A DNA stretch of 23,530 nt. Source: a virus (lineage: Duplodnaviria > Heunggongvirae > Uroviricota > Caudoviricetes). Below the pieces are notes generated by a model. That model searched no databases. It was not told where the DNA came from and was given only the letters and a program-made list of their open reading frames with translations. Each line of letters starts with the position of its first letter. Position 1 is the stretch's first letter. The DNA lies in IMG/VR virus record IMGVR_UViG_2534681997_000007, positions 1-23,530 of that record. One strand, written 5' to 3'. Made by a program: the position numbers and the translations under genes. Positions 172 to 13,332 of this stretch are shown piece by piece.

Positions 172-1221
172 TTATGCAACCTCTGCCGCCACATTGTCGC
201 CAACATACAGCGATAACGGATTGAGGGTTACAGCTTGTTCAAGGTGGTCAGGAGCAAAGTGCGCATACTTCATTGTTTCTCGAATATTGGCATGTCCGAG
301 AATTTTCTGCAGCACCAGTATATTCCCTCCGTTCATCATAAAATGCGCACCAAAAGTATGACGCAAAACGTGCGTCTTCTGCCCTTCCGTCAATTCAATA
401 TTCGTTAGTTTGAGCATCTTTTTAAACTCCTGATAGCAGGGTTTAAACATTCTGCCTTGACGTACGGACAACTCGTCGTACAGCCATTTAGGAATAGGAA
501 CTGTGCGATTCTTCTTACCTTTGGTTTTGGTGAACGTTAGTTTATATGGAGAAAGTTGAGGTCGGGTCAATCTCTCCGCTTCCCCCCATCGAGCGCCGGT
601 TGCAAGGCACACCTTAACAATCATGGTGAGGTCTTCTTTGCCGTATTGCTCGCAGGCTCGAAACAGCTCCGGGAGCTGAGACAAAGTTAGCCAGGACATT
701 TCTTTCTCAGCTTCTTTGAATACTCGGATCCCATCAAGTGGATTGGGTAGGCTCCACTCCCCTAACCGGCGGAGCTCATTAAACACTGCTTCTAGGTATT
801 GTTGTTCGCGATTGACGGTTATAGGTTTGGCGATCCATTTCGAGGGGTCTTTATGATAACCATTGTCTATTTCACCACGTAATCGACGGTCACGATAATG
901 AGCCCAGTCTTTCGCGGTAAGGCGAGATGCAATCGGGTCGCCAAGTCCATTACATACGATTTGAAGCTTTGCAAACCTCGACTTACTGGCGACTAACGCT
1001 TGACCGTGCAAATTGTGCCAAAGCTGAATAATCTCGCTTAAGCGTCGGCGGTCTTCTTTCTTGCCGAGCCACGGCTTATCTTCACTCTCGCTTTTGGTAA
1101 ATGCTTCAAATGCCTCGGCCTCACCTTTGGTATTGAACTGCCGACGTATACGCCGCCCTTCTCGACCATTTGGATAGAGTTCACACAACCATTTTCCACT
1201 TTTTTGTTTACTTACAGTCAT
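172..1221 (-). CDS. int: Tyrosine recombinase, phage integrase (P2/186 family)
   Basis: 349-aa ORF; C-terminal catalytic region HVLRHTFGAHFMMNGGNILVLQKILGHANIRETMKYAHF (R...HxxR...Y signature); positioned at prophage end, transcribed toward the att side. Confidence 0.9.
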   Translation of the reverse strand: MTVSKQKSGKWLCELYPNGREGRRIRRQFNTKGEAEAFEAFTKSESEDKPWLGKKEDRRRLSEIIQLWHNLHGQALVASKSRFAKLQIVCNGLGDPIASRLTAKDWAHYRDRRLRGEIDNGYHKDPSKWIAKPITVNREQQYLEAVFNELRRLGEWSLPNPLDGIRVFKEAEKEMSWLTLSQLPELFRACEQYGKEDLTMIVKVCLATGARWGEAERLTRPQLSPYKLTFTKTKGKKNRTVPIPKWLYDELSVRQGRMFKPCYQEFKKMLKLTNIELTEGQKTHVLRHTFGAHFMMNGGNILVLQKILGHANIRETMKYAHFAPDHLEQAVTLNPLSLYVGDNVAAEVA

Positions 1222-1593: not shown

Positions 1594-2439
1594 TTAAACA
1601 TGCTTTTCCAAAGTAAAAATAACCGCACCTGATGGTGTGATATCTGAAATATTACATTCAAACTCAGCAGACTTATTTGATAACCTGACCTTTCCGCCTG
1701 GCAACCTGATTACGTCAAAAACATCGAGTGCGCCATCAATACCAATAAGCCAGCGACCATTTCCTATCTTCGAGTTAGAACTATCAACAAGCCAAGATGT
1801 GCTCACACCATCAATAAACACTAAATCATCAGTATTTGATGGAACCATAGATATATCAGGAGTCCAGCGTCCGATATCTTTGAGTTCGCCAGCCTCGAGG
1901 CGGCACTTTCTAATCGTTAAAGCATTTGCCGGTTCACCATCATTACTGTTACGCATCTGGCCTTTTCCGGTTGATAACCATTCTAACGATACGCCAGTAT
2001 CAAGGGCGCAAGTGACAACCACGTCACCGGGGAAAAAATCGCGTCTAACCCAAGTGCTTATAGTGCCGGAAGATATACCTAATAAATCTCCAAGCTCTTT
2101 TTGCAGAGTAAAACCATACGCATCGAGAATCCGACGCAGAACCGCCCTCCCTCCATTTGCCATGATTTCATCATAGAGTTGCTTACCTTTAAGCTTAGTT
2201 TTCACCACTTCAAATCTTGCATTTGCAAGCTCACCATTAATTAGCCATCGCAGGTCAGCTCCAGTATCAAGAGCACACTCAACGAAAACGTTGCTAGGGA
2301 TTACGTTTCTAGCAAGCCAGCTACTCACGTTGTTTGCATGTATGCCAAGCCTTTCGGCTAGTTCCTTTTGCTGCTTAAAGCCGTATGCAGAAAGGACACG
2401 TTCCAATGCGGCAGACGCATTAACATCATTTTTAGACAT
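1594..2439 (-). CDS. cI: Immunity repressor, phage 186 CI-like, with two tandem copies of the CI-type HTH domain plus a C-terminal oligomerisation-type domain
   Basis: Start placed at the Met of MSKNDV (2439) rather than ORF-track 2628, which would run through the divergent promoter and the apl start; internal duplication LERVLSAYGFKQQKELAERLGI...CALDTGADLRWL / LRRILDAYGFTLQKELGDLLGI...CALDTGVSLEWL. Confidence 0.75.
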   Translation of the reverse strand: MSKNDVNASAALERVLSAYGFKQQKELAERLGIHANNVSSWLARNVIPSNVFVECALDTGADLRWLINGELANARFEVVKTKLKGKQLYDEIMANGGRAVLRRILDAYGFTLQKELGDLLGISSGTISTWVRRDFFPGDVVVTCALDTGVSLEWLSTGKGQMRNSNDGEPANALTIRKCRLEAGELKDIGRWTPDISMVPSNTDDLVFIDGVSTSWLVDSSNSKIGNGRWLIGIDGALDVFDVIRLPGGKVRLSNKSAEFECNISDITPSGAVIFTLEKHV

Positions 2440-4043: not shown

Positions 4044-4271
4044 ATGCGTAATACCGAAATCCGTAGTTTTAACACTGATAGCGATGCGCTGGCCGTATTG
4101 CTGACCGATGCAAAAAAAGAAGAGCGTAAAGACCGCGCGCTCGCTGTTTCCATCCGCCTTGAGGCGCTGGCTATCCATATTACCAGAGAGGGTATGAGCG
4201 GCACCGAAGCTGCCGAACTGCTGCGCCGTGAAGCAACCCGCTTTGAGAATGAATCACAGGAGCTGCACTAA
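4044..4271 (+). CDS. Hypothetical early protein
   Basis: 75 aa; SD AGGAGA 8 nt upstream of ATG. Confidence 0.5.
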   Translation: MRNTEIRSFNTDSDALAVLLTDAKKEERKDRALAVSIRLEALAIHITREGMSGTEAAELLRREATRFENESQELH

Positions 4272-4492
4272 TGGCCGACGCAATGGATTTAGCACAACTG
4301 CGCGAGCAGGAAGACCGCGAACGCCACATCAGCAACGCACGCACCCGTATCGCTGCACCTTCCCGTTTTCTTTGCGAGGAATGTGACACACCAATCCCGG
4401 AAGCTCGCCGCATTGCGATTCCGGGCGTGGCTTTTTGCGTAACCTGCCAGCAAATAGCAGAGCTAAAAAACAAACACTATCGGGGGGTATAA
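4271..4492 (+). CDS. TraR/DksA-type C4 zinc-finger protein
   Basis: 73 aa; CEECDTPIPEARRIAIPGVAFCVTC (CxxC-N17-CxxC); start overlaps upstream stop (TAATG). Confidence 0.65.
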   Translation: MADAMDLAQLREQEDRERHISNARTRIAAPSRFLCEECDTPIPEARRIAIPGVAFCVTCQQIAELKNKHYRGV

Positions 4493-4493
4493 A

Positions 4494-6713
4494 TTGGCTG
4501 TTCAATTCGCTTATCCGTGGAACGTCCCACGGTCGGCAATCTCCAGCCCATACCTTACTTATGAGCAACAGCATCGTCGCGACCGTATGTTCGCGGCTTT
4601 GCTGCATGCAAAAAAGGTGCTTTCTCTCCAGCCCGACTGCGTACGGTTAGATGTTTATCGCACTGCTGCGGTGCTGGAGCAAAATCAGGGTAGTCAACGA
4701 GCCAATGCATTTTTAATCAGCTTCTGCAAAAAGGCATTGCCGCGTCTTGAACTGGTCGCAAAAAAATACGAATGCGCTGGTATCAACAGCAAGGTATCAA
4801 CCGCTGTTTTTGGAAGTCATTTTGATACTCAGCAAATGCAATATCTGTCGTCACGCATGGTTAATATGGTCGCCCAATATAACCGTCTCCCGGACATGTC
4901 GCGCGCTGATGTTGACCTGTTGGCCGCTGATATTGCTAATTTCATTCGTGGTGAACTTGCCAACATTAATGACCACGGATTCGGCGAGCTTAAAACGCTG
5001 TACACCTGGTATATTCGTGCTGGCTTTATTTCCCTCCAATTCAACGTTATCCCACCACATTGGGAGCGGGTTGAAAAAAAATATGTCGGTGCGGATGAAA
5101 TCGCACCGGCTATCGCCAAAATGTTTAACGATGGGTGGTGGCGCGGTCGTTTGCGCCGTGTTGCAGCTACGTGGCGCGAACACCTGCAAATTGCAGTCGG
5201 CAACGTCAGTAAGAAAAAAAACACTTACGCGAGTAAAAACTGCGTGACTGACTGGCGTGAACAAAAGCGCCGCACTCGTGAATTTCTCAAAGGTCTGGAT
5301 CTCGAAGACGAAGACGGCAACCGTATCAGCCTAATTGAAAAATATGATGGCTCAGTTGCTAACCCTGCGATTCGCCGCTGTGAGCTCATGACCCGCATTC
5401 GTGGGTTTGAAAACATCTGTAATGAGCTCGGTTATGTCGGTGAGTTTTACACTCTAACCGCGCCGTCAAAATATCACGCCACGACTAAAGCCGGTTACCG
5501 TAACAGCAAATGGAGCGGTGCCAGCCCGGCTGACACGCAAAACTATCTAACCGGTATCTGGGCGCGTATCCGTGCCAAACTACATCGGGAAGATGTCCGT
5601 ATTTTCGGTATTCGTGTCGCCGAGCCCCATCACGACGGCACTCCACACTGGCACATGCTGATGTTCATGCTGCCGGAAGATGTTGAATATGTTCGCTCCA
5701 TCGTCCGTAAATACGCATGGAAAGAAGACCGCCACGAACTGAAAAGCGATAAATCCAAAAAAGCACGTTTCCACGCCGAGTCCATTGACCCGGAGAAAGG
5801 CAGCGCAACCGGCTATGTTGCTAAATACATTTCAAAAAATATCGACGGTTATGCTCTCGATGGTGAAACCGATGATGAAAGCGGTGAGCTGCTGAAAGAG
5901 ACAGCCCCCGCCGTTTCAGCATGGGCTGCGCGCTGGCACATCCGTCAGTTTCAGTTTATTGGTGGTGCGCCGGTGACGGTTTACCGTGAGTTGCGTCGCC
6001 TCGCTGATACCGAAACCGCGCACGGTCTGAGCGTTGAGTTTGCCGCCGTCCATGATGCCGCCGACGCTGGTGACTGGGCTGGTTATGTTAATGCTCAAGG
6101 TGGGCCGTTTGTCCGTCGCGATGATTTACAGGTGCGCACACTGTATGAACCGCGTACCGAGCTTAATCAGTACGGTGAGGAAACGGTATGTATTAAGGGG
6201 GTCTACGATTCCTCCATAGGTGCAGGAAGCCCGATTTTAACCCGGCTCACTCAGTGGAAGATTGTTCCGAAGCGTGCTGTTGATTTGGCCGTTGACCTTC
6301 AGGACGGCAAAGCCGTCCCTCGGAGTTCTGTCAATAACTGTACGGGAAGCGAAAGCGATCCACCGGAACTCGATTTATCAAAACCCCTGAGTCGACGTGA
6401 AAGACGAGAGCTGACAAACCGACTCAGGAAGCAAAAGCCAGCAATACGGCGAAAATTCATCCACGGAACGGATGAGCAAAACGCAGCTATAGCTAAAACT
6501 ATCGACGAGATACAACTTACAACTGGCATCACAATCAGCCGGGGCGAAGCCCTGCACCTGATGGCCGGTGGTAAAAGTTGTTTTGATGACAAATGGCTAC
6601 GCGGAACATCAATGGGTGAAATATTTTCCGCTGCGCCATCACATCAGGCTAAAGCCAAGAAAATCCTTAATCGCGTTGCTGCGATGGCTGAAGCAGCAAA
6701 AACCAATACCTGA
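4494..6713 (+). CDS. A: Rolling-circle replication initiator endonuclease gpA (P2 A / 186 RepA family)
   Basis: 739-aa ORF; HUH-type motif PHHDGTPHWHMLMF and catalytic tyrosine motif TGYVAKYISKNIDGYA; ORF-track start 4494 is TTG one base after the upstream stop, first in-frame ATG is 4587, so the start is uncertain. Confidence 0.9.
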   Translation: MAVQFAYPWNVPRSAISSPYLTYEQQHRRDRMFAALLHAKKVLSLQPDCVRLDVYRTAAVLEQNQGSQRANAFLISFCKKALPRLELVAKKYECAGINSKVSTAVFGSHFDTQQMQYLSSRMVNMVAQYNRLPDMSRADVDLLAADIANFIRGELANINDHGFGELKTLYTWYIRAGFISLQFNVIPPHWERVEKKYVGADEIAPAIAKMFNDGWWRGRLRRVAATWREHLQIAVGNVSKKKNTYASKNCVTDWREQKRRTREFLKGLDLEDEDGNRISLIEKYDGSVANPAIRRCELMTRIRGFENICNELGYVGEFYTLTAPSKYHATTKAGYRNSKWSGASPADTQNYLTGIWARIRAKLHREDVRIFGIRVAEPHHDGTPHWHMLMFMLPEDVEYVRSIVRKYAWKEDRHELKSDKSKKARFHAESIDPEKGSATGYVAKYISKNIDGYALDGETDDESGELLKETAPAVSAWAARWHIRQFQFIGGAPVTVYRELRRLADTETAHGLSVEFAAVHDAADAGDWAGYVNAQGGPFVRRDDLQVRTLYEPRTELNQYGEETVCIKGVYDSSIGAGSPILTRLTQWKIVPKRAVDLAVDLQDGKAVPRSSVNNCTGSESDPPELDLSKPLSRRERRELTNRLRKQKPAIRRKFIHGTDEQNAAIAKTIDEIQLTTGITISRGEALHLMAGGKSCFDDKWLRGTSMGEIFSAAPSHQAKAKKILNRVAAMAEAAKTNT

Positions 6714-6731
6714 GTAATTCACATCCATATC

Positions 6732-6765
6732 ATGAACATACAGCAATCACCCTGTTCATTTTTTT
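6732..6765 (+). terminator. Weak terminator-like hairpin after gene A (ATGAACA-N14-TGTTCAT followed by a T7 run)
   Basis: 7-bp AT-rich stem with a large loop, then TTTTTTT; read directly. Confidence 0.3.
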
Positions 6766-6790
6766 CTTCCCATCTTTTGCCAATACGTGC

Positions 6791-6810
6791 TACTGTATAA
6801 ATATACAGTA
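6791..6810. promoter_or_regulatory. LexA box (SOS operator) TACTGTATAAATATACAGTA
   Basis: Perfect CTGT-N8-ACAG core with AT-rich spacer, one mismatch to the 20-bp consensus; 21 bp upstream of the 6831 ATG; a possible -35 TTGCCA lies at 6777-6782. Confidence 0.7.
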
Positions 6811-6830
6811 CACCCTATGGGAGGGATTTC

Positions 6831-7013
6831 ATGGTTGGCGAACATTTCAGCCGAACGCAGCAAAAGTGGGCTTGTGTGCAATTTATTGCCGAGGTATCTC
6901 TGATTGCAAACTGCAAACCAGCAGACTTAAAGCTCGCACTCACTCTCATTGCTGACCTTGCAAACAGCGAAAATAACGAAACAGAAGAAAAAATTTTTTA
7001 TAAGGTTGAATAG
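6831..7013 (+). CDS. Small ORF under the LexA box; candidate SOS-induced protein at the position where phage 186 encodes its antirepressor Tum
   Basis: 60 aa; SD GGGAGGG 7 nt upstream of ATG; no recognisable domain; much shorter than 186 Tum as I recall it. Confidence 0.4.
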   Translation: MVGEHFSRTQQKWACVQFIAEVSLIANCKPADLKLALTLIADLANSENNETEEKIFYKVE

Positions 7014-7195
7014 AAGCATGATTGAACGACTCTCTTTGCAGGTTTTTTGACAGAAGTTAATAGCTTTTTCGTTAACCAAAGAAAAGACTGATAGTACAAA
7101 CGACTAGTAGAATCATCACCATGGCAAAAAGATAGTTTATTTAACTGAAATCACTGGATTTTGATGAAGAAATAGACAGTTTTACATAATGTTTG

Positions 7196-7224
7196 TTGAT
7201 TCACCGAAGACACGAACCTATAAT
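7196..7224 (+). promoter_or_regulatory. Sigma70-type promoter TTGATT-17 bp-TATAAT upstream of the Panacea-domain gene
   Basis: Consensus -10 at 7219-7224, -35 at 7196-7201, 17-bp spacer; ~150 bp upstream of the 7373 ATG. Confidence 0.5.
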
Positions 7225-7308
7225 TCGCGCGCTACCATGCTTATCGTCATTGCTATTTACTGTTATTTGTAAGTATTGACGCTACTAGAGTAGTCAGTTA
7301 GTCTCAAA

Positions 7309-7328
7309 GTAGATGGTTATCCATCTAC
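7309..7328. promoter_or_regulatory. Perfect palindrome GTAGATGG-TTAT-CCATCTAC between promoter and Panacea gene; candidate operator or 5' UTR hairpin
   Basis: 8-bp arms with 4-bp spacer read directly. Confidence 0.4.
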
Positions 7329-7372
7329 ATAAGATGCATCGCTTTTATGCGAGGTTCATCTAAGGAGGTTTT

Positions 7373-7843
7373 ATGTACAACCCGATTTGCATCGTGAACG
7401 AATTTATCGAACGCGCTAAAAAAAACGGGGACAACCTCACCCACATGCAGGCTCAAAAGCTTCTTTATGTTGCTCATGGTTACAGCCTAGCTTTTCTTAA
7501 CGAGCCTTTGCTTGAAGAACCAGTGTGTGCGTGGAGGTACGGTCCGGTAATTCCATCGGTCTACTATGCGCTGCGCCATAATCGTTCAAACCCGATATCA
7601 GAAAAAGCATCATCAACATCGGTAGTACCGGAAAAGATAGACAGTAAAACTGCATCACTTCTGGACATGATTTACGAAACATACGGGAAGCTTTCCGGTG
7701 TTCTCTTATCTGAATTTACTCATCGCCCAGGTACTCCATGGTCACAGGCGATAGAAAAACGAGAAAACATCATCAGTGATGCCAGTATCAAAGACTATTA
7801 TTTGCGTCTAGCAAGACGAGATCCAGTTTGCAACGGATTGTAA
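7373..7843 (+). CDS. Panacea-domain (DUF4065, GepA/SocA-like) protein; candidate antitoxin or immunity component
   Basis: 156 aa; strong SD AAGGAGG 5 nt upstream; motif MQAQKLLYVAHGYSLAFLNEPLLEEPVCAWRYGPVIPSVYYAL matches the DUF4065 core as I recall it. Confidence 0.75.
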   Translation: MYNPICIVNEFIERAKKNGDNLTHMQAQKLLYVAHGYSLAFLNEPLLEEPVCAWRYGPVIPSVYYALRHNRSNPISEKASSTSVVPEKIDSKTASLLDMIYETYGKLSGVLLSEFTHRPGTPWSQAIEKRENIISDASIKDYYLRLARRDPVCNGL

Positions 7844-7860
7844 AATCAGATTATTATTGA

Positions 7861-7885
7861 CCCCGCTTAAACTGCGGGGTTTTTT
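7861..7885 (+). terminator. Intrinsic-terminator-like hairpin CCCCGC-TTAAACT-GCGGGG followed by TTTTTT, ending immediately at the start codon of the next gene
   Basis: 6-bp GC stem, 7-nt loop, 6 T; the only purine-rich SD-like element for the downstream ATG (GGGG, 7876-7879) is inside the 3' arm. Confidence 0.5.
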
Positions 7886-8482
7886 ATGTCGTCCGATAAT
7901 GAAACAATCAAAAATCTGATGAAAGAGGCTATACAGAGTCATGTTACTGATCTCTTCAAATCTCTTGATGTAGGCCCTAAACCAAAGCCGACAGAAAGAT
8001 CCTCTCCCGCCAATGATGACCCCGAAGCAAACCTTTCTGCTGAAGACAAAGCCAAAAAAGAAGAACAGGCTTTTGATTCGCCTACTGATGATGAGCACGA
8101 AGAGTTGCAAGGTCTTGCATACTGGAGTCTGGAGCACAGGCGTCGGATAGACTCTCTTACAATTCAAAAAACACAAGAAGAAATTGTACGTATCTCTTGT
8201 GAAAACGACGACCTTAGGGCTAAAACAAAGAACAACCATGCAGTTGCCCGTGGCCGTCAAATAGACAACAGACTGCGTTTACAATTAGCTGCTGCAACCT
8301 TTAAGTTCATGCAGTATTGGTGTGGTTTTGTCGCTTTCATTGTTGCTTGGTATGTATTCGCCCACTATGGCAAACCTGAAAAAGAAGTCATCATTGCACT
8401 ACTCGGAACCAGCACAATAAGTATTATTGGTTTAGTTGGTTTTGTAGTTAGCGGTTTATTTAAATCAAAAAAAGATGAATAG
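7886..8482 (+). CDS. Small membrane protein with acidic N-terminal region and two C-terminal transmembrane helices; candidate toxin/abortive-infection effector
   Basis: 198 aa; hydrophobic segments FKFMQYWCGFVAFIVAWYVFAHY and VIIALLGTSTISIIGLVGFVVSGLF; N-terminal ~130 aa rich in D/E/K; AT-rich. Confidence 0.65.
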   Translation: MSSDNETIKNLMKEAIQSHVTDLFKSLDVGPKPKPTERSSPANDDPEANLSAEDKAKKEEQAFDSPTDDEHEELQGLAYWSLEHRRRIDSLTIQKTQEEIVRISCENDDLRAKTKNNHAVARGRQIDNRLRLQLAAATFKFMQYWCGFVAFIVAWYVFAHYGKPEKEVIIALLGTSTISIIGLVGFVVSGLFKSKKDE

Positions 8483-8532
8483 CACAGCATACCTAAAACA
8501 GGCTAACCCCACTGAAGAAAAACTATTTTTTT

Positions 8533-8574
8533 GTGCCAGCAGAGTTGAACAACTCGCACCACGGGGCGTTAGTT
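8533..8574 (+). repeat. Left copy of an imperfect ~42-bp direct repeat (core GTTGAACAAC...GGCGTTAGT)
   Basis: 31 of 42 positions identical to 8938-8979, including exact 10-mer and 9-mer blocks in the same register. Confidence 0.35.
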
Positions 8575-8696
8575 CTGCCTTTCAAAGTTTCTCGATGTGT
8601 TATTGATTACACACCCGTGATGAATGGGACGTTACCTTGGCGGGTTTTATAGTGGCGCTTTGGCAGCACTAAATAAAATTCATTGAAGGCGATAAT

Positions 8697-8906
8697 ATGC
8701 ATCGACTACCGGGCGAGATTCCGCAGCACAAAACTAAAAGCATACAACTTATGGCTATCGTTCATCGTCTGCAGACGATAATGGTCAATGAGAACCTGAC
8801 TCCAGCAGAGCTAGTCGGGTGTGCAGAAATAGTCAGGGATAATTACGGCAAGCTGGATAATATCAGCAGACCGACACAATACTCACCTCCACCACGTCGG
8901 CGATAG
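8697..8906 (+). CDS. Small hypothetical ORF between the repeat copies
   Basis: 69 aa; ATG with weak SD GAAGG; no recognisable domain. Confidence 0.3.
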   Translation: MHRLPGEIPQHKTKSIQLMAIVHRLQTIMVNENLTPAELVGCAEIVRDNYGKLDNISRPTQYSPPPRRR

Positions 8907-8917
8907 CAAACGCCGTC

Positions 8918-8942
8918 AGCGCTGAAACTCGCTTTCAGTGCT
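8918..8942. other. Stem-loop AGCGCTGAAA-CTCGC-TTTCAGTGCT between convergent genes
   Basis: 10-bp stem with one G-U pair; no U-tract on either side, so not a canonical terminator. Confidence 0.35.
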
Positions 8943-8979
8943 GGCGGGGTTGAACAACGAGCTACGCGAGGCGTTAGTC
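8938..8979 (+). repeat. Right copy of the imperfect ~42-bp direct repeat; overlaps the stop codon of the HNH gene
   Basis: See left copy at 8533-8574. Confidence 0.35.
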
Positions 8980-9852
8980 GAATTTTACAGGCGACAATGG
9001 TTGTTTTAATTCTTTATCGTGGAAATGTTTGTAGCGTGGATCCTTACGAGCCTCATCGGAAAATACCGATCGATTATCTTCTATCCTAAGATGGCCCGAG
9101 TCTAATAAACGATGTAGGTCTGAAGCAAGTGCAATACCGTTTTCAACACTTGGCGCTCCGCCTGCCGCGTGGCTTAAAATGTGACACGCATCAATCGCAA
9201 AGCGAGAGCCCGTAATTGCGCAACATCCCCTCCAATTGGCTAATACGTCCTTTCTGAACCGGCCTTGAGCTTTTCGTATTTTTGTCAGCGAATAACCATC
9301 TTCAACATATGAACGCTGCTCGAATGTAGGTGATGGTTCGGTTATCTGGGGTAATTGTTGCAAACCATTCTGGTTAACCTTAAATTCTTCCCAAAGATGC
9401 TTACTAACTATTTTACCTTGGCGAGCGCACCAGTTGGTAAAATCTCTCTTTTCGTATTCATCTAAAGACGCCAGCCATTCGCGTAATTCAGAAGTGGCTA
9501 AAACATTTTGATGTAATTGACGATTTTGTGGCAGTGGTGCCAACCTCTCTTTTTTCTCGCCTCGCCGGTAAGGGGGAAGTTTCAATGTGTCCTTCATTGA
9601 AATCGTGCCAGCTGCGTTGGTTCGGACGCTGAATTGACCAGCATACTCAACTTTTTTAGCAGTTGTGGGAGTTGTTGGCTTTCTGTTATTAGCCATCCAA
9701 CGCTGTACTTGGTGCAAGACTTCACTAGCTTCCAGCCCCTTACTTATCAATTCTTTGACATATTTTTTAACCTCTTGTTTATTTGGTTGGTATTCGAATA
9801 AATACGGTGAAAGCTTTAAAATTTCTTTCATTGAAGTTTTTGTTTCAGCCAT
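8974..9852 (-). CDS. HNH-endonuclease-domain protein with ~200-aa N-terminal domain of unknown function; candidate defence nuclease
   Basis: Start at the Met of MAETKT (9852) preceded by GGGGGGA; C-terminal motif CCAITGSRFAIDACHILSHAAGGAPSVENGIALASDLHRLLDSGHLRIED, HNH_2-like as recalled; AT-rich. Confidence 0.75.
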   Translation of the reverse strand: MAETKTSMKEILKLSPYLFEYQPNKQEVKKYVKELISKGLEASEVLHQVQRWMANNRKPTTPTTAKKVEYAGQFSVRTNAAGTISMKDTLKLPPYRRGEKKERLAPLPQNRQLHQNVLATSELREWLASLDEYEKRDFTNWCARQGKIVSKHLWEEFKVNQNGLQQLPQITEPSPTFEQRSYVEDGYSLTKIRKAQGRFRKDVLANWRGCCAITGSRFAIDACHILSHAAGGAPSVENGIALASDLHRLLDSGHLRIEDNRSVFSDEARKDPRYKHFHDKELKQPLSPVKFD

Positions 9853-10028
9853 AAATCCCCCCATTTTAATTTTCTAAAAATGCACTTAATGTCATTTTTC
9901 TCAGCGTGCATTCATGGTGCATGGTTTTGCATGCGAATAATGTCTCATTTTTATGGGTGCGCCACCAGTGCTGGCGCGGATCCAGAGTAATCATGCAACT
10001 GCATTAAAACCGCCCCATAAAGCGGGCA

Positions 10029-10047
10029 GGCGTGGCGGGGAAAGCAT
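10029..10047. other. cos site (19-nt cohesive-end sequence GGCGTGGCGGGGAAAGCAT)
   Basis: Matches the phage 186 cohesive end as I recall it (P2 differs at two positions); lies between the cargo island and portal gene Q as expected for a P2-like prophage. Confidence 0.6.
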
Positions 10048-10057
10048 TGCGCGCCAG

Positions 10058-10158
10058 CGGTGGTGCGTATTATTAAAAATTATCGTCTGAGAACGTCGTG
10101 ACGGCGCTGTAGTGGCCGGGTGTGATCGTGGGCGCGTGGTGCGTCTGTGGCGTGGTGC
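10058..10158. repeat. Three copies of (C/G)GTGGTGC(G) within 100 bp on the Q-proximal side of cos; candidate terminase recognition repeats
   Basis: CGGTGGTGCGT at 10058-10068, CGTGGTGCG at 10135-10143, CGTGGTGC at 10151-10158. Confidence 0.35.
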
Positions 10159-10251
10159 TAAAGGATGGGATCAGTTGCACAATTTTACGGTTTCGCTTTG
10201 GCTAATATCCATATTGAGACTTTATGTTCCCCACAACAGTTGGAGGCTTTA

Positions 10252-10476
10252 ATGGATAACTATCATATTACAAAAGATGGCGATAAGTGGAAGTTGCAAA
10301 AAGAGGGCAATGATCGCCCTAGCAAGACCGCGACCACAAAGGCCGAGCTGATTAAAACAACATCTGAGTTTATGTCGAACAAAACAGGCTCGGTCAAAAT
10401 TCACAAGGAAGATGGGAAAATTCAGGAAGAACGCACTTATCAGAGAAAAGATGATCCTAAAAAGTCTAAAGGCTAA
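10252..10476 (+). CDS. Small basic protein, DUF2188-like, between cos and the portal gene
   Basis: Start at ATG 10252 (MDNYHITKDGDKWKLQKEGNDRPSK...) with SD GGAGG 5 nt upstream; ORF-track start 10165 lacks an SD. Confidence 0.55.
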   Translation: MDNYHITKDGDKWKLQKEGNDRPSKTATTKAELIKTTSEFMSNKTGSVKIHKEDGKIQEERTYQRKDDPKKSKG

Positions 10477-10484
10477 CATAGCAA

Positions 10485-10505
10485 AAGCCGCCAAAATGGC
10501 GGCTT
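10485..10505 (-). terminator. Hairpin AAGCCGCC-AAAAT-GGCGGCTT between convergent genes; best fits termination of the Q/P operon
   Basis: 8-bp stem; on the minus strand it is followed by TTTGCTATGTT; sits 10 bp beyond the Q stop. Confidence 0.5.
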
Positions 10506-10514
10506 AAAAGGTGA

Positions 10515-11561
10515 TTATTCCGGGTTGTCGAGTGTGTACTCTTTGAACCTGATGACCTCCATACCGAGCCAGTCGTTTACCTCCCTGAACCTATCCTGCA
10601 GGGGTGACAGCTCATTACGCACAAATACCTTTGCCACCTTCTCAACGTCACCGAGTGAACCGATATTCTCGGGCTTGCCGCCCATGAGCTGGAACGGCAC
10701 GCGGTGCGCGTCCATCAGGTCGGCGGCGCTGGCTTTCTTAATGTTGAAAAAGTCATCCTTTGTGGCGACCTCGCTCAGTGGCACGATTTTGATGCCGTCC
10801 GGTTTTCCGCCGGGGGCGTAGAAAAACAGGTTCTTAAAGTTGCCGAGTCCCTTCGAGTTACGCATCGCCTCGCGCAGCGATTCGACGTCGGTCGCACTTT
10901 GCGCCGGGTCAGTCACATACATGATGTAGCCTGCGTGCGCGCCGTTCTGATAATACTTGCGGCGGAACAGCGTCGCGGATTCATTCAGCCAAGCGGAATT
11001 AAGCGCGCTGAGATATTCCGGCAGACCGTAAATCTCCTGATTAATGTCGGGCTCCAGCAGGTGAAACACGGTATCAGGCGCGAACTCGTGCGGCTGGGTG
11101 AAGTTTTCCACAAACCAGAAAATCGAATCGTCGACTCCGCGTCGGGTGTATTTGGCTGGCGAGGCCAGCAGTTTGATTAACTGGCCGGTGACGCTGTGGC
11201 GCTGCTCAAGAAAGGCGTTACCGAATACCAGATAATCGAGCGCAAAGCGGCTGAAATCCTGACGGGATAACAACGGGTGCGGAATGTAGGTGCTCGCGAG
11301 CACGTTACGCTTAACATAAATTGGCGAGCTGTGATGCACGGCAGAGCGCAGGCTCTTTGCCAGCCCTGAGAAGCTGACCGGCGGCTCGTACCATTTGCCG
11401 TTACTGATGCACTCGACGTAATCCAGAATGTCGCGCTTATCGAGTACCGGCACCGGCTCGCCGAAGGTGAACGCTGTCGTTTTTGGCGGTGCGCTGGCGG
11501 TCAGTTGTTGTGGTTTGCTGGCCTTTTGTGCGTTGGCTTTACGGGATTTTTGTTTACCCAT
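10515..11561 (-). CDS. Q: Portal protein gpQ
   Basis: 348 aa, P2 Q-sized, basic N-terminus MGKQKSRKANAQK; position next to cos and downstream of terminase P. Confidence 0.9.
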   Translation of the reverse strand: MGKQKSRKANAQKASKPQQLTASAPPKTTAFTFGEPVPVLDKRDILDYVECISNGKWYEPPVSFSGLAKSLRSAVHHSSPIYVKRNVLASTYIPHPLLSRQDFSRFALDYLVFGNAFLEQRHSVTGQLIKLLASPAKYTRRGVDDSIFWFVENFTQPHEFAPDTVFHLLEPDINQEIYGLPEYLSALNSAWLNESATLFRRKYYQNGAHAGYIMYVTDPAQSATDVESLREAMRNSKGLGNFKNLFFYAPGGKPDGIKIVPLSEVATKDDFFNIKKASAADLMDAHRVPFQLMGGKPENIGSLGDVEKVAKVFVRNELSPLQDRFREVNDWLGMEVIRFKEYTLDNPE

Positions 11562-11562
11562 T

Positions 11563-13332
11563 TTAGTTGAACTCCAGAATAGATTTAGGCTGCATGCCGC
11601 TACCGGCAGAAAGCGGTTCGTTTAACAGGGCGTGCATGGTCGCCCATGCGATATCGGCGTGGCTGGCTTCCTCGGTGCGGCTGGCCTCATAGGTAGCGCT
11701 GCGCCCGCTGCTGGTCATGGTTTTGCGGATGGACATAAACGACTGCGTGACGTCGGTTGCTCCGGCGTCGTACTCCAGACAGCCACGGCGAATGGTGTCT
11801 TTCGCCTTGAGTACCATTGCGGTTTTCATTTCAGGTGTGTAACGGATGCCGCGTGCCGCCGGGTAAAATGAGCGCACCAGCTGGAACACGCCGAGACCGA
11901 GGCCGGTTGCGTCAATGCCGATGTATTCGACGTTGTATTTCTCGGTCAGCTTGCGGATGCCCTCTGCCTGTGCTGCAAAATCCATACCCTTCCACTGGTG
12001 GCGCTCCAGCATGCGGAACTTGCCACCAGAGACCACCGGCGGCGCGAGCACGACGCACCCGGCACTGTCGCCGGTGTGTGACGGGTCGTAGCCTATCCAG
12101 ACAGGACGAGAGCCGAACGGATGGTCGGCGAACGGGGCAAAGTCCTCCCATTCCTCCATCACATCGACCATGCAGCGCTGCAGCTCCTCGAACGGGAATA
12201 CCGACGCTTTATCGTCGACAAACTCGCACATAAACAGGTTCTTAAAGTCCTCATCACTGTTTTCGCGTTTGAGCTGGTCGAGGTCGAACAGGGTGCAGCC
12301 ACCCGCAAGGGCGTCCTCAATGGTGACAATCTGCCGCCACTGGCCATCGTCGCAGAGCTGGCCACCGGCGAGCGCGCTGTGACTGATGTCGATTTCGATG
12401 CGGTCGGCAATCCGGCTGCGCCCCTTGTTGAACAGCTCGCCAGACCAGAAGGGGTAAGCGCCGTGCGCCAGCGTGGAAGGTGTCGAAAAATAGGTCGAGC
12501 GCAGGTGCTTTTGCGAGGCCATGCCCGAGGCGACTTTGCGCAGTTTCTGAAAATTCGGGATCCAGAATATTTCATCGACATACAGATCGCCGTTATGGCT
12601 CTGCGCGGTGTTGGAATTGGTACCGAGAAAAATCAGTTTTGCGCCGTTGTTACCGATGACAATCGGGTCGCCAGTCAGGTCAACGTCGACCAGTCGCGCA
12701 AACTGGATGATGTATTCGCGGAACACGTAAGCCTGCGTTTTACTGGCTGATAAAAATATCTGGTTATGGCCGGTTTTGAGTGCGCGCAGCAGTGCCTCGC
12801 GGGAGAAATAGAATGTCGCGCCAATCTGGCGGGATTTGAGAATGTCACGAATACGGTGCTCCAGTCCTGCGCGGTACCACTGCAACTGGTACTCGAAAGA
12901 CTGGTCGAAAAATAATTCCTCTAGTTTATCGATAGCCTCGTCGCTGAAAAAATTCTTTTTCGGCTTTTTGCGCTCCCCTTTGTTGCGGTTGGCGACGTTG
13001 GGGTTAAGGTCGGCTTCGTTGCCGGTCTGGCTGTAGCGGTTGACTCGCGCCAACCGTTCAATCTGCCGTCCGAGCAGGTCAATCTCTTTGAAATCACCCC
13101 CTGTCTTTTGCGGCTTGGCGATGAGCTGAATCAGCCTAGCCTCAAGGCTGCTTTCAACGCGGGAAATCGGCGCGATGCCGTCCCAGCCGTCGCGCTGCTT
13201 CCAGCTCTGCACGGTCGGGCGCTTGACCTGCAGCATTTCGGCAATCTGTGGCACGGAAAAACCCTGCCAGTAAAGCAGCGATGCCTGCCGTCGCGGGTCA
13301 TGCAACAAGGTTGTATCGGTGGAAATGGTCAT
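11563..13332 (-). CDS. P: Terminase large (ATPase) subunit gpP
   Basis: 589 aa, P2 P-sized; divergent from scaffold gene O. Confidence 0.9.
   Translation of the reverse strand: MTISTDTTLLHDPRRQASLLYWQGFSVPQIAEMLQVKRPTVQSWKQRDGWDGIAPISRVESSLEARLIQLIAKPQKTGGDFKEIDLLGRQIERLARVNRYSQTGNEADLNPNVANRNKGERKKPKKNFFSDEAIDKLEELFFDQSFEYQLQWYRAGLEHRIRDILKSRQIGATFYFSREALLRALKTGHNQIFLSASKTQAYVFREYIIQFARLVDVDLTGDPIVIGNNGAKLIFLGTNSNTAQSHNGDLYVDEIFWIPNFQKLRKVASGMASQKHLRSTYFSTPSTLAHGAYPFWSGELFNKGRSRIADRIEIDISHSALAGGQLCDDGQWRQIVTIEDALAGGCTLFDLDQLKRENSDEDFKNLFMCEFVDDKASVFPFEELQRCMVDVMEEWEDFAPFADHPFGSRPVWIGYDPSHTGDSAGCVVLAPPVVSGGKFRMLERHQWKGMDFAAQAEGIRKLTEKYNVEYIGIDATGLGLGVFQLVRSFYPAARGIRYTPEMKTAMVLKAKDTIRRGCLEYDAGATDVTQSFMSIRKTMTSSGRSATYEASRTEEASHADIAWATMHALLNEPLSAGSGMQPKSILEFN

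Follow-up and report, generated by a model that had tools for sequence, protein, structure and literature searches.

A LexA-controlled, PSP3-type tumA gene as the probable SOS-induction module of a 186/PSP3-type prophage

Results and discussion

Probable SOS-induction module downstream of replication gene A

The segment directly downstream of replication gene A in the window (the whole stretch of 23,530 nucleotides that was analysed) is very probably an SOS-induction module, in which a LexA-repressed promoter drives the antirepressor TumA and TumA in turn induces the prophage (probability about 0.88). The window itself is an intact 186/PSP3-type prophage (Peduoviridae, Eganvirus-like), and its main landmarks are listed together with the features of the module in Table 1. 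The reading was built on the observed LexA box and its conservation, on the identity of the tumA gene and the selection acting on it, and on the absence of tumB and the breakpoints that accompany it. LexA control of the p95 promoter, sequestration of the CI repressor by Tum and the activity of PSP3 tumA were taken from the literature and from the annotation of relatives.

In an undamaged cell, host LexA would occupy the near-consensus box and tumA would stay silent, because the box overlaps the -10 and start region of a p95-type promoter. DNA damage would lead to RecA-stimulated self-cleavage of LexA, by which the p95-type promoter would be freed. The 60-residue, two-helix TumA would then be made and would bind non-covalently to the prophage CI, and the TumA-bound CI would no longer hold the lytic promoter off, so that the prophage would switch to lytic growth. 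In this scheme TumA would be the N-terminal antirepressor half of the 146-aa Tum of phage 186, and the C-terminal DinI-like half of Tum corresponds to a separate gene, tumB, in PSP3. We infer that the TumA of the window would inactivate the CI of the window. The induction switch of the window prophage would thereby be identified, and the database label of the gene corrected, since tumA is called 'hypothetical protein' by RefSeq in every match listed.

Table 1 Features of the window that bear on the SOS-induction module
Feature	Positions	Strand	Basis
Integrase-sized ORF	172-1221	-	
cI, PSP3-type immunity repressor with tandem HTH repeats	1594-2439	-	PF07022 twice, PF16452 once
DksA/TraR-type zinc-finger protein; other early genes upstream	4271-4492	+	
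Replication protein gpA	4494-6713	+	
p95-type promoter and tumA region	6767-7013	+	
-35 hexamer TTCCCA of p95-type SOS promoter	6767-6772	+	Homology to 186
-10 hexamer TACTGT of p95-type promoter (LexA box bases 1-6)	6791-6796	+	Homology to 186
LexA (SOS) box TACTGTATAAATATACAGTA	6791-6810	.	20-mer consensus match, PWM, conservation
RBS GGGAGGG	6819-6825	+	5 nt upstream of the start codon (6831); block kept in 25-sequence alignment
tumA, 60-aa putative SOS-induced antirepressor	6831-7013	+	Homology to 186 Tum N-terminal domain
359-bp AT-rich leader, left end of the cassette replacing tumB	7014-7372	+	Homology break after tumA stop
Panacea-domain (PanA/SocA-like) antitoxin gene, hotspot cargo	7373-7843	+	PF13274
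198-aa protein, putative PanT-type membrane toxin	7886-8482	+	Charged N-terminus, hydrophobic C-terminal segments
Accessory cargo	about 7014-10500	mixed	
Portal	10515-11561	-	
Terminase	11563-13332	-	

LexA box and promoter

Since a LexA operator is a 20-bp palindrome, TACTG(TA)5CAGTA, with a CTGT-N8-ACAG core, both the core and the full consensus were searched for in the window. The perfect core pointed out in the earlier note was confirmed by reading the sequence and occurs once in the 23.5 kb. The core by itself is weak evidence, because at least one match was also present in 23 of 100 shuffled windows. When the 20-mer was searched for with up to three mismatches allowed, a single site was recovered, TACTGTATAAATATACAGTA, whose coordinates were verified by reading the sequence. 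It agrees with the consensus at 19 of 20 positions (one mismatch), and no such site was found in any of the 100 shuffles, so the description of the box as near-consensus stands. The site was further scored, as the earlier note had proposed, with a LexA position weight matrix (PWM) made from 18 classical E. coli SOS boxes of a published compilation; the matrix is approximate. With this approximate matrix TACTGTATAAATATACAGTA reached 29.0 of a maximum of 30.7 bits and all 18 training sites scored lower (13-28 bits), while the second-best 20-mer of the window reached 7.6 bits; it is the only LexA box of the window. An identical 20-bp box is carried by PSP3.

The promoter was assigned through its homology to the one annotated in 186. 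Position by position, the window aligns with the p95 region annotated in 186, over a stretch that begins about 110 bp upstream and includes the LexA box; this supports the proposal of the earlier note that a direct SOS input lies at the 186 tum position. In this alignment the window -35 TTCCCA is placed on the annotated 186 p95 -35 TTCACA with an 18-bp spacer in both, and the window -10 is placed on the 186 p95 -10 (record positions 29044-29049), where the LexA site annotated in 186 also starts. Judged by consensus, the p95-type promoter of tumA would be weak: its hexamers match at 4/6 and 3/6 positions and were not called in a consensus promoter scan. An alternative -35, TTGCCA (6777-6782, apparently the start coordinate used in the earlier note), was rejected and the 186-mapped hexamers were adopted, because TTGCCA is without an acceptable -10 at 16-18 bp. 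With the promoter placed by homology in this way, the LexA box would overlap the core promoter, allowing bound LexA to occlude RNA polymerase. The tumA ORF begins 20 nt downstream of the box and is preceded by a good RBS, as had been described.

Conservation of the operator among relatives

The box, the 186-mapped p95 -35 and -10 hexamers and the spacing were kept without exception among the 108 relatives that could be scored, which comprise 29 species genomes and 79 viral contigs. The LexA box was located 17-23 nt upstream of the tumA ATG at 29/29 loci of the species representative genomes, and 18-22 nt from it at 79/79 loci of the IMG/VR viral contigs. The species set takes in Pantoea loci, in which TumA is only about 50% identical. 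In an alignment of 25 sequences from different genera, the CTGT and ACAGT half-sites were the invariant non-coding columns and their flanks varied; the next best conserved non-coding blocks were the -35 block, which is kept as CTTC(A/C)CA across genera, and the RBS. Taken comparatively, this pattern argues strongly for a functional operator.

Identity of the tumA gene

The ORF behind the box runs from the ATG at 6831 to a TAG stop and encodes 60 aa. A tblastn search against phage records gave ten matches at 90-92% identity, all of them covering the 60 residues in full. The TumA of Salmonella phage PSP3 (AAN08399) is 91.7% identical to that of the window over all 60 residues, and the GenBank note on PSP3 tumA (AY135486) reads 'similar to 5' end 186 tum; UV induction of prophage'; the label 'UV induction of prophage' was given to the tumA homologue in another phage record too. 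No TumA model was found in Pfam, NCBIfam or PADLOC.

The homology between TumA and 186 Tum rests on profiles, because pairwise BLASTP gives no alignment between the two. The window TumA belongs in full length to the family phrog_1993 (residues 4-60, E 1e-30), to which 186 Tum is assigned through its residues 1-61 (E 1e-22). By hhalign, residues 16-48 of TumA were aligned with residues 14-46 of Tum (E 3.3e-5, probability 72%), and the pattern V..IA...C..D...AL.LIA..A is common to both proteins. The AlphaFold2 model of TumA is a two-helix hairpin (residues 8-25 and 30-50, mean pLDDT 68). A PDB sequence search and a Foldseek search with this model returned nothing below E = 1; a 60-residue helical hairpin is too simple for a fold search to be informative.

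It had been remarked in the earlier note that the ORF is far shorter than Tum, which is correct (60 against 146 aa), and that it could be either a compact antirepressor-like product or the remnant of a longer gene. The first of these is supported by the match to PSP3-type tumA and to phrog_1993. The second does not hold, because a length of about 60 aa is usual in the family and purifying selection acts on the gene: 188 homologues were detectable across the Enterobacteriaceae, nearly all of 59-63 aa, and the selection on tumA is strong, with a pN/pS of 0.19 overall and 0.077 for the core residues 13-46 at a pS near saturation (15 gap-free orthologues). The region was matched in 83 of 5,426 complete E. 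coli genomes, and 137 indexed blocks of an assembly collection contain the exact TumA allele. From these comparisons the window ORF is identified as PSP3-type tumA, the split form of 186 tum and a real full-length gene.

Loss of tumB and the Panacea cassette

In PSP3-type phages, tumB starts 4 nt past the tumA stop and encodes about 77 aa, and it is annotated in phage records as 'similar to dinI and 3' end of 186 tum'. The PSP3-type split tumA-tumB operon, defined by a DinI-like gene 3-18 nt after tumA, is not present in the window, and neither is a 186-type fused Tum, since the window ORF stops at residue 60 without a DinI-like domain. An iterated DinI HMM found nothing in the window; the same HMM recovered the C-terminus of 186 Tum, PSP3 tumB and 8 species loci. 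The 86 residues of 186 Tum that are absent here are a separable DinI-like module (tumB), a point that the earlier note had missed.

Homology of the window to PSP3, 613R3 and Midge stops just past the tumA stop and resumes near 8505-8520, and a homologue of orf37 lies at 8697-8906, beyond the point where the PSP3 homology resumes. Judged from these breakpoints, tumB has been replaced here by a 1.5-kb AT-rich cassette of a Panacea antitoxin gene and a membrane-protein gene, so that the absence of tumB is explained by an exchange of the DNA that directly follows the tumA stop. Such a replacement is a common kind of mosaicism. tumB is missing in 21/29 species loci and in 31/79 viral loci, and directly past the tumA stop the loci part into more than 15 different types, some of them with only a vestigial tumB start. 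In 186-type phages the DinI-like half of Tum is thus dispensable, and it is often absent from them.

The leader at the left end of the cassette has a GC content of 35% against 52% for the whole window, and the ORFs that lie wholly inside it are all of 33 aa or less; the stretch of about 360 bp without an ORF reported in the earlier note is 359 bp long. The Panacea domain (PF13274) was found with an E value of 1.3e-18 and 68.4 bits against a cut-off of 25.7, and the NCBIfam SocA equivalog scored below its cut-off on the same protein. The 198-aa protein gave no Pfam family and no PADLOC match above noise. Its architecture is similar to that of the validated E. coli membrane PanT toxins (Kurata et al., PMC8832971), and together with the Panacea gene it may form a PanA-PanT pair, in which both the toxin and its neutralisation are putative.

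The same cassette was located at +360 after the exact tumA allele in all contigs listed, while the backbones and the further cargo differ. The hosts that carry this allele together with the cassette are E. coli and Citrobacter (exact-protein look-up in draft assemblies), and no match to the 1.5-kb cassette was obtained by megablast among phage records or complete E. coli genomes. The variable DNA that follows tumA occupies the gpA-gpQ hotspot, known from P2-like phages as a site of defence genes. Its cargo in the window consists of the Panacea toxin-antitoxin pair, an HNH protein and a DUF2188/PDC-S16 protein, and in relatives this cargo differs extremely from one to the next, some of them carrying it on the opposite strand.

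Transcription beyond tumA

Among the other explanations of the segment, the one that survives best is that the LexA-controlled promoter mainly drives the downstream cargo, which would be a role additional to tumA and not a replacement of it. Transcripts of the p95 type would run through the leader into the Panacea gene and be attenuated before the membrane-toxin gene, and SOS would raise the antitoxin relative to the toxin, which might, for example, keep an inducing prophage from setting off its own abortive-infection system. This is considered rather unlikely as the main function of the promoter. As a possibility independent of how TumA acts on CI, the SOS promoter may still read into the hotspot cargo and raise the Panacea antitoxin on induction.

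Read-through from the SOS promoter into the Panacea and membrane genes had been suggested in the earlier note. SOS-driven read-through from tumA into panA is plausible because no intrinsic terminator separates tumA from the cassette: none was found between tumA and panA in two independent scans, one of which covered 420 nt from the tumA stop and recovered the 186 t95a control. The genes tumA, panA and the 198-aa gene are co-oriented, and the attenuation could be due to a hairpin resembling a terminator that separates panA from the 198-aa gene (7859-7881). An Rfam search of 6600-8700 gave only a sub-threshold Trp-leader match, on the terminator-like hairpin at 7823-7887. A precedent for read-through is provided by 186 (NC_001317), in which the tum transcript is annotated as passing the partial terminator t95a into orf97, and orf97 blocks 186 infection when expressed from a plasmid. 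The occurrence of the tumA allele and the cassette together, at a fixed spacing and on several prophage backbones among the contigs listed, also fits a cargo-driving role.

However, the cassette has a good promoter of its own, a sigma-70-like site TTGATT-17-TATAAT in the leader (7196-7224) that matches at 10/12 positions, and the PWM scan of the window found no LexA box near it. The 359 untranslated, AT-rich nucleotides of the leader are moreover a plausible target of Rho or H-NS, and silencing of the leader by either of them is equally plausible as read-through. The predicted RNA fold of this spacer (7014-7372) was unremarkable in comparison with shuffled sequence (z = -1.1). Because the cargo after tumA is so variable, and is on the opposite strand in some relatives, no general coupling of SOS to the cargo is under selection.

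CI repressor as the presumed target of TumA

It has been reported that, after SOS de-repression of p95, Tum of 186 sequesters CI (PMC7708051), and in the 186 record (NC_001317) Tum is annotated with 'expression repressed by LexA; inhibits CI DNA binding' and the LexA site begins at the p95 -10. For PSP3, antirepressor activity of the upstream tum gene was relayed by Lemire et al. (2011, PMC3121763) from a personal communication of G.E. Christie cited in Bunny et al. (2002). In the P2-like prophage of E. coli HS, mitomycin C induction is abolished by deletion of tum or by lexA(Ind-) (Phollow paper, PMC12055606). A CI of the 186/PSP3 family (PF07022 + PF16452) is present in the window and in 62/62 complete relatives. 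The window CI is 73% identical to that of PSP3, with a tandem HTH duplication in both, and 32% identical to the 192-aa CI of 186; the latter lines up with HTH repeat 2, to which its N-terminal domain corresponds, followed by the C-terminal domain.

That TumA is SOS-induced and acts on a target other than CI, such as Apl/CII, LexA/RecA or a host factor, is regarded as improbable. In its favour, no structural homologue was found in the PDB sequence and Foldseek searches that would point to a mechanism. Co-variation was also examined at the 62 viral loci with TumA, CI and gpA by Spearman correlation of distances. The TumA distance correlated at 0.49 with that of CI and at 0.68 with that of the adjacent gpA, and because the correlation with gpA exceeds that with CI, there is no signal of co-evolution between TumA and the whole CI beyond linkage. 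Against another target stand the homology of TumA to the N-terminus of 186 Tum, for which inhibition of CI DNA binding is documented, and the reported antirepressor role of PSP3 tumA.

A further argument for CI comes from the constraint on its parts, which was measured in 53 distinct tandem-HTH CIs from TumA-bearing phages. HTH repeat 1 is conserved at 57-78% with a pN/pS of 0.39, and the C-terminal domain at 62-90% with a pN/pS of 0.31. HTH repeat 2 is conserved at 91-95% with a pN/pS of 0.11 at a pS of 0.71 and is the only CI region as constrained as the nearly invariant TumA core, so that the TumA core and repeat 2 are two comparably invariant elements of the switch. One identical TumA sequence was paired with 21 CIs whose mutual identity is 65-100%. 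These values suggest that repeat 1 carries the immunity specificity while TumA docks on repeat 2. As a tentative extension that is less likely than not, TumA could act as a universal antirepressor of the SOS response, with the invariant repeat 2 of CI, and not its specificity part, as the docking site. If this were true, immunity specificity and induction signal would be separate modules, and the TumA of one prophage should cross-induce heteroimmune 186/PSP3-type relatives in the same cell.

Remaining alternatives to a functional, LexA-controlled antirepressor gene can be dealt with briefly. The ORF could be regarded as a decayed, non-functional stump of a 186-type fused tum, since 186 Tum exceeds it by 86 residues and the window nowhere contains the DinI-like part. 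This very improbable explanation is already refuted by the comparative data, namely the standard length of the homologues, the end-to-end match to phrog_1993, the low core pN/pS at near-saturated pS, the conservation of RBS, ATG and LexA box, the presence of the exact allele in more than 100 collection blocks, and the same 60-aa gene, named and functional, in PSP3. A chance palindrome, or a site of a non-LexA regulator, is hardly credible at all, since the frequency of the bare core in shuffled windows (23%) is outweighed by the 20-mer match, by a PWM score above all classical boxes, by half-sites that are invariant across genera between variable flanks, and by a position that is the annotated LexA site of 186.

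Comparison with known systems

The SOS module is already known from the annotation of PSP3 and from the literature: the 20-bp operator of the window is identical to that of PSP3, and the two TumA proteins agree at 92% of their residues. The established view of how antirepressors bring about SOS induction is left as it was, and the annotation is refined. The closest relative is the tumA-tumB pair of PSP3 (AY135486), and likewise of SEN1, SW9, Midge and vB_EcoM-613R3, with the same promoter, RBS and position after gene A. PSP3 further resembles the window in its tandem-HTH type of CI and in the orf37 homologue further downstream, whereas its tumB follows tumA directly and the window has the Panacea and membrane-protein cassette in that place and no DinI-like gene.

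The p95-tum-orf97 operon of 186 (NC_001317) is similar in the LexA box over the -10, in the location of the promoter just downstream of gene A on homologous DNA, in the N-terminal ~60 residues of Tum that belong to the same profile family, and in the logic of a CI-sequestering antirepressor. Its transcript runs on into accessory cargo, which is annotated for 186 and plausible for the window. The window differs from 186 in that the latter encodes Tum as one 146-aa polypeptide, whose C-terminal half is DinI-like and whose gene has internal starts said to 'modulate SOS induction'; moreover, the 186 CI has one HTH, and the partial terminator t95a follows tum, where none was found in the window. 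The resemblance of the second half of 186 Tum to DinI, and the splitting of tum in two by a stop codon in Fels-2 and PSP3, have been described (Lemire et al. 2011, PMC3121763).

A small, LexA-repressed antirepressor that binds a non-cleavable repressor is also found in GfoA/GftA of the Gifsy prophages, FsoA of Fels-1 and AntC of N15, and some of these antirepressors work in trans against other prophages (PMC3121763). These proteins belong to unrelated families, however, and their targets are lambdoid or N15 repressors; in the Gifsy operon, a dinI homologue comes first (PMC3121763).

The slot that follows tumA corresponds to the gpA-gpQ hotspot (Rousset et al. 2022, PMC9122126; NAR 2026, PMC13586616) in lying between gene A and the portal gene Q and in carrying defence-like cargo. 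Neither tum nor LexA nor SOS is mentioned in the main text of these two papers. In 186-type phages the left edge of the hotspot is not gpA but the stop codon of tumA (or tumB), which in the window is that of tumA, and the LexA-controlled promoter points into the hotspot.

Conserved repressor repeat and the TumA family

The CI immunity repressor of the window contains two tandem PF07022 HTH repeats. It was compared among 53 distinct CIs of TumA-bearing phages; the loci covered were the window and L057-L136 of relatives. Repeat 2 was 91-95% conserved, with a pN/pS of 0.11 at a pS of 0.71; repeat 1 diversifies (pN/pS 0.39), as does the C-terminal domain (0.31). The CI of phage 186, which has a single HTH, is collinear with repeat 2 plus the C-terminal domain of the tandem-repeat CI. 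This pattern of constraint suggests that repeat 2 may be a docking module for TumA, the predicted antirepressor, which is equally invariant.

The protein cluster of TumA (nominal 90% identity) also includes 77-aa proteins annotated as 'DinI family' and a Klebsiella 91-aa 'SOS operon TUM protein', and this mixed membership is probably a clustering artefact arising from overlapping or fused gene calls. Upstream of tumA, a motif preceding the -35 of the p95-type promoter was kept in 186 and, in the form TATCATGnACATA, in many genera.

Distribution of tumA and the Panacea cassette in E. coli

The tumA region was found in 83 of the 5,426 complete E. coli genomes in RefSeq, and every full-length match among those listed (H31-H70) lies under the annotation 'hypothetical protein'. 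The Panacea cassette (the Panacea gene and the gene of a putative membrane toxin) had no match in the same 5,426 genomes; draft assemblies of E. coli and Citrobacter do carry it.

Features of the window from the CI gene to the DUF2188 gene
Feature	Position	Strand	Sequence or context
CI repressor gene	1594-2439	-	two PF07022 repeats
Conserved motif	6725-6743		CCATATCATGAACATACAG; between gene A stop and -35
tumA	6831-7013	+	60 aa
Promoter-like site of Panacea cassette	7196-7224		
Perfect palindrome	7309-7328		GTAGATGG-TTAT-CCATCTAC
Terminator-like hairpin, strong	7859-7887		GACCCCGC-TTAAACT-GCGGGGTT + T-run
54-nt direct repeat	8520-8573; 8925-8978		two copies
orf37 homologue	8697-8906		
HNH_2 protein gene	8974-9864	-	296 aa; beside DUF2188 gene
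DUF2188 protein gene	10165-10476	+	directly ahead of portal gene

Putative regulatory elements and cargo boundaries

The perfect palindrome, located between the promoter-like site and the Panacea RBS, may allow the toxin-antitoxin pair to regulate itself, acting either as an operator or as an RNA hairpin. The terminator-like hairpin is placed between the Panacea stop (7843) and the ATG (7886) of the 198-aa membrane protein, a position from which it may attenuate the toxin relative to the antitoxin; Rfam gave only a sub-threshold Trp-leader match there.

Copies of the 54-nt direct repeat, 72% identical, lie either side of the orf37 homologue. The same element is located after tumB, the DinI-like second half of Tum, in PSP3, 613R3 and Midge, and a short way 3' of tumA in two TumA-bearing relatives (L048 and L114). 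It appears to be a sequence that recurs at cassette boundaries in the gpA-gpQ hotspot. The DUF2188 protein, which matched the candidate defence family PDC-S16 in PADLOC (E 1e-14), and the HNH_2 protein are further cargo of this hotspot.
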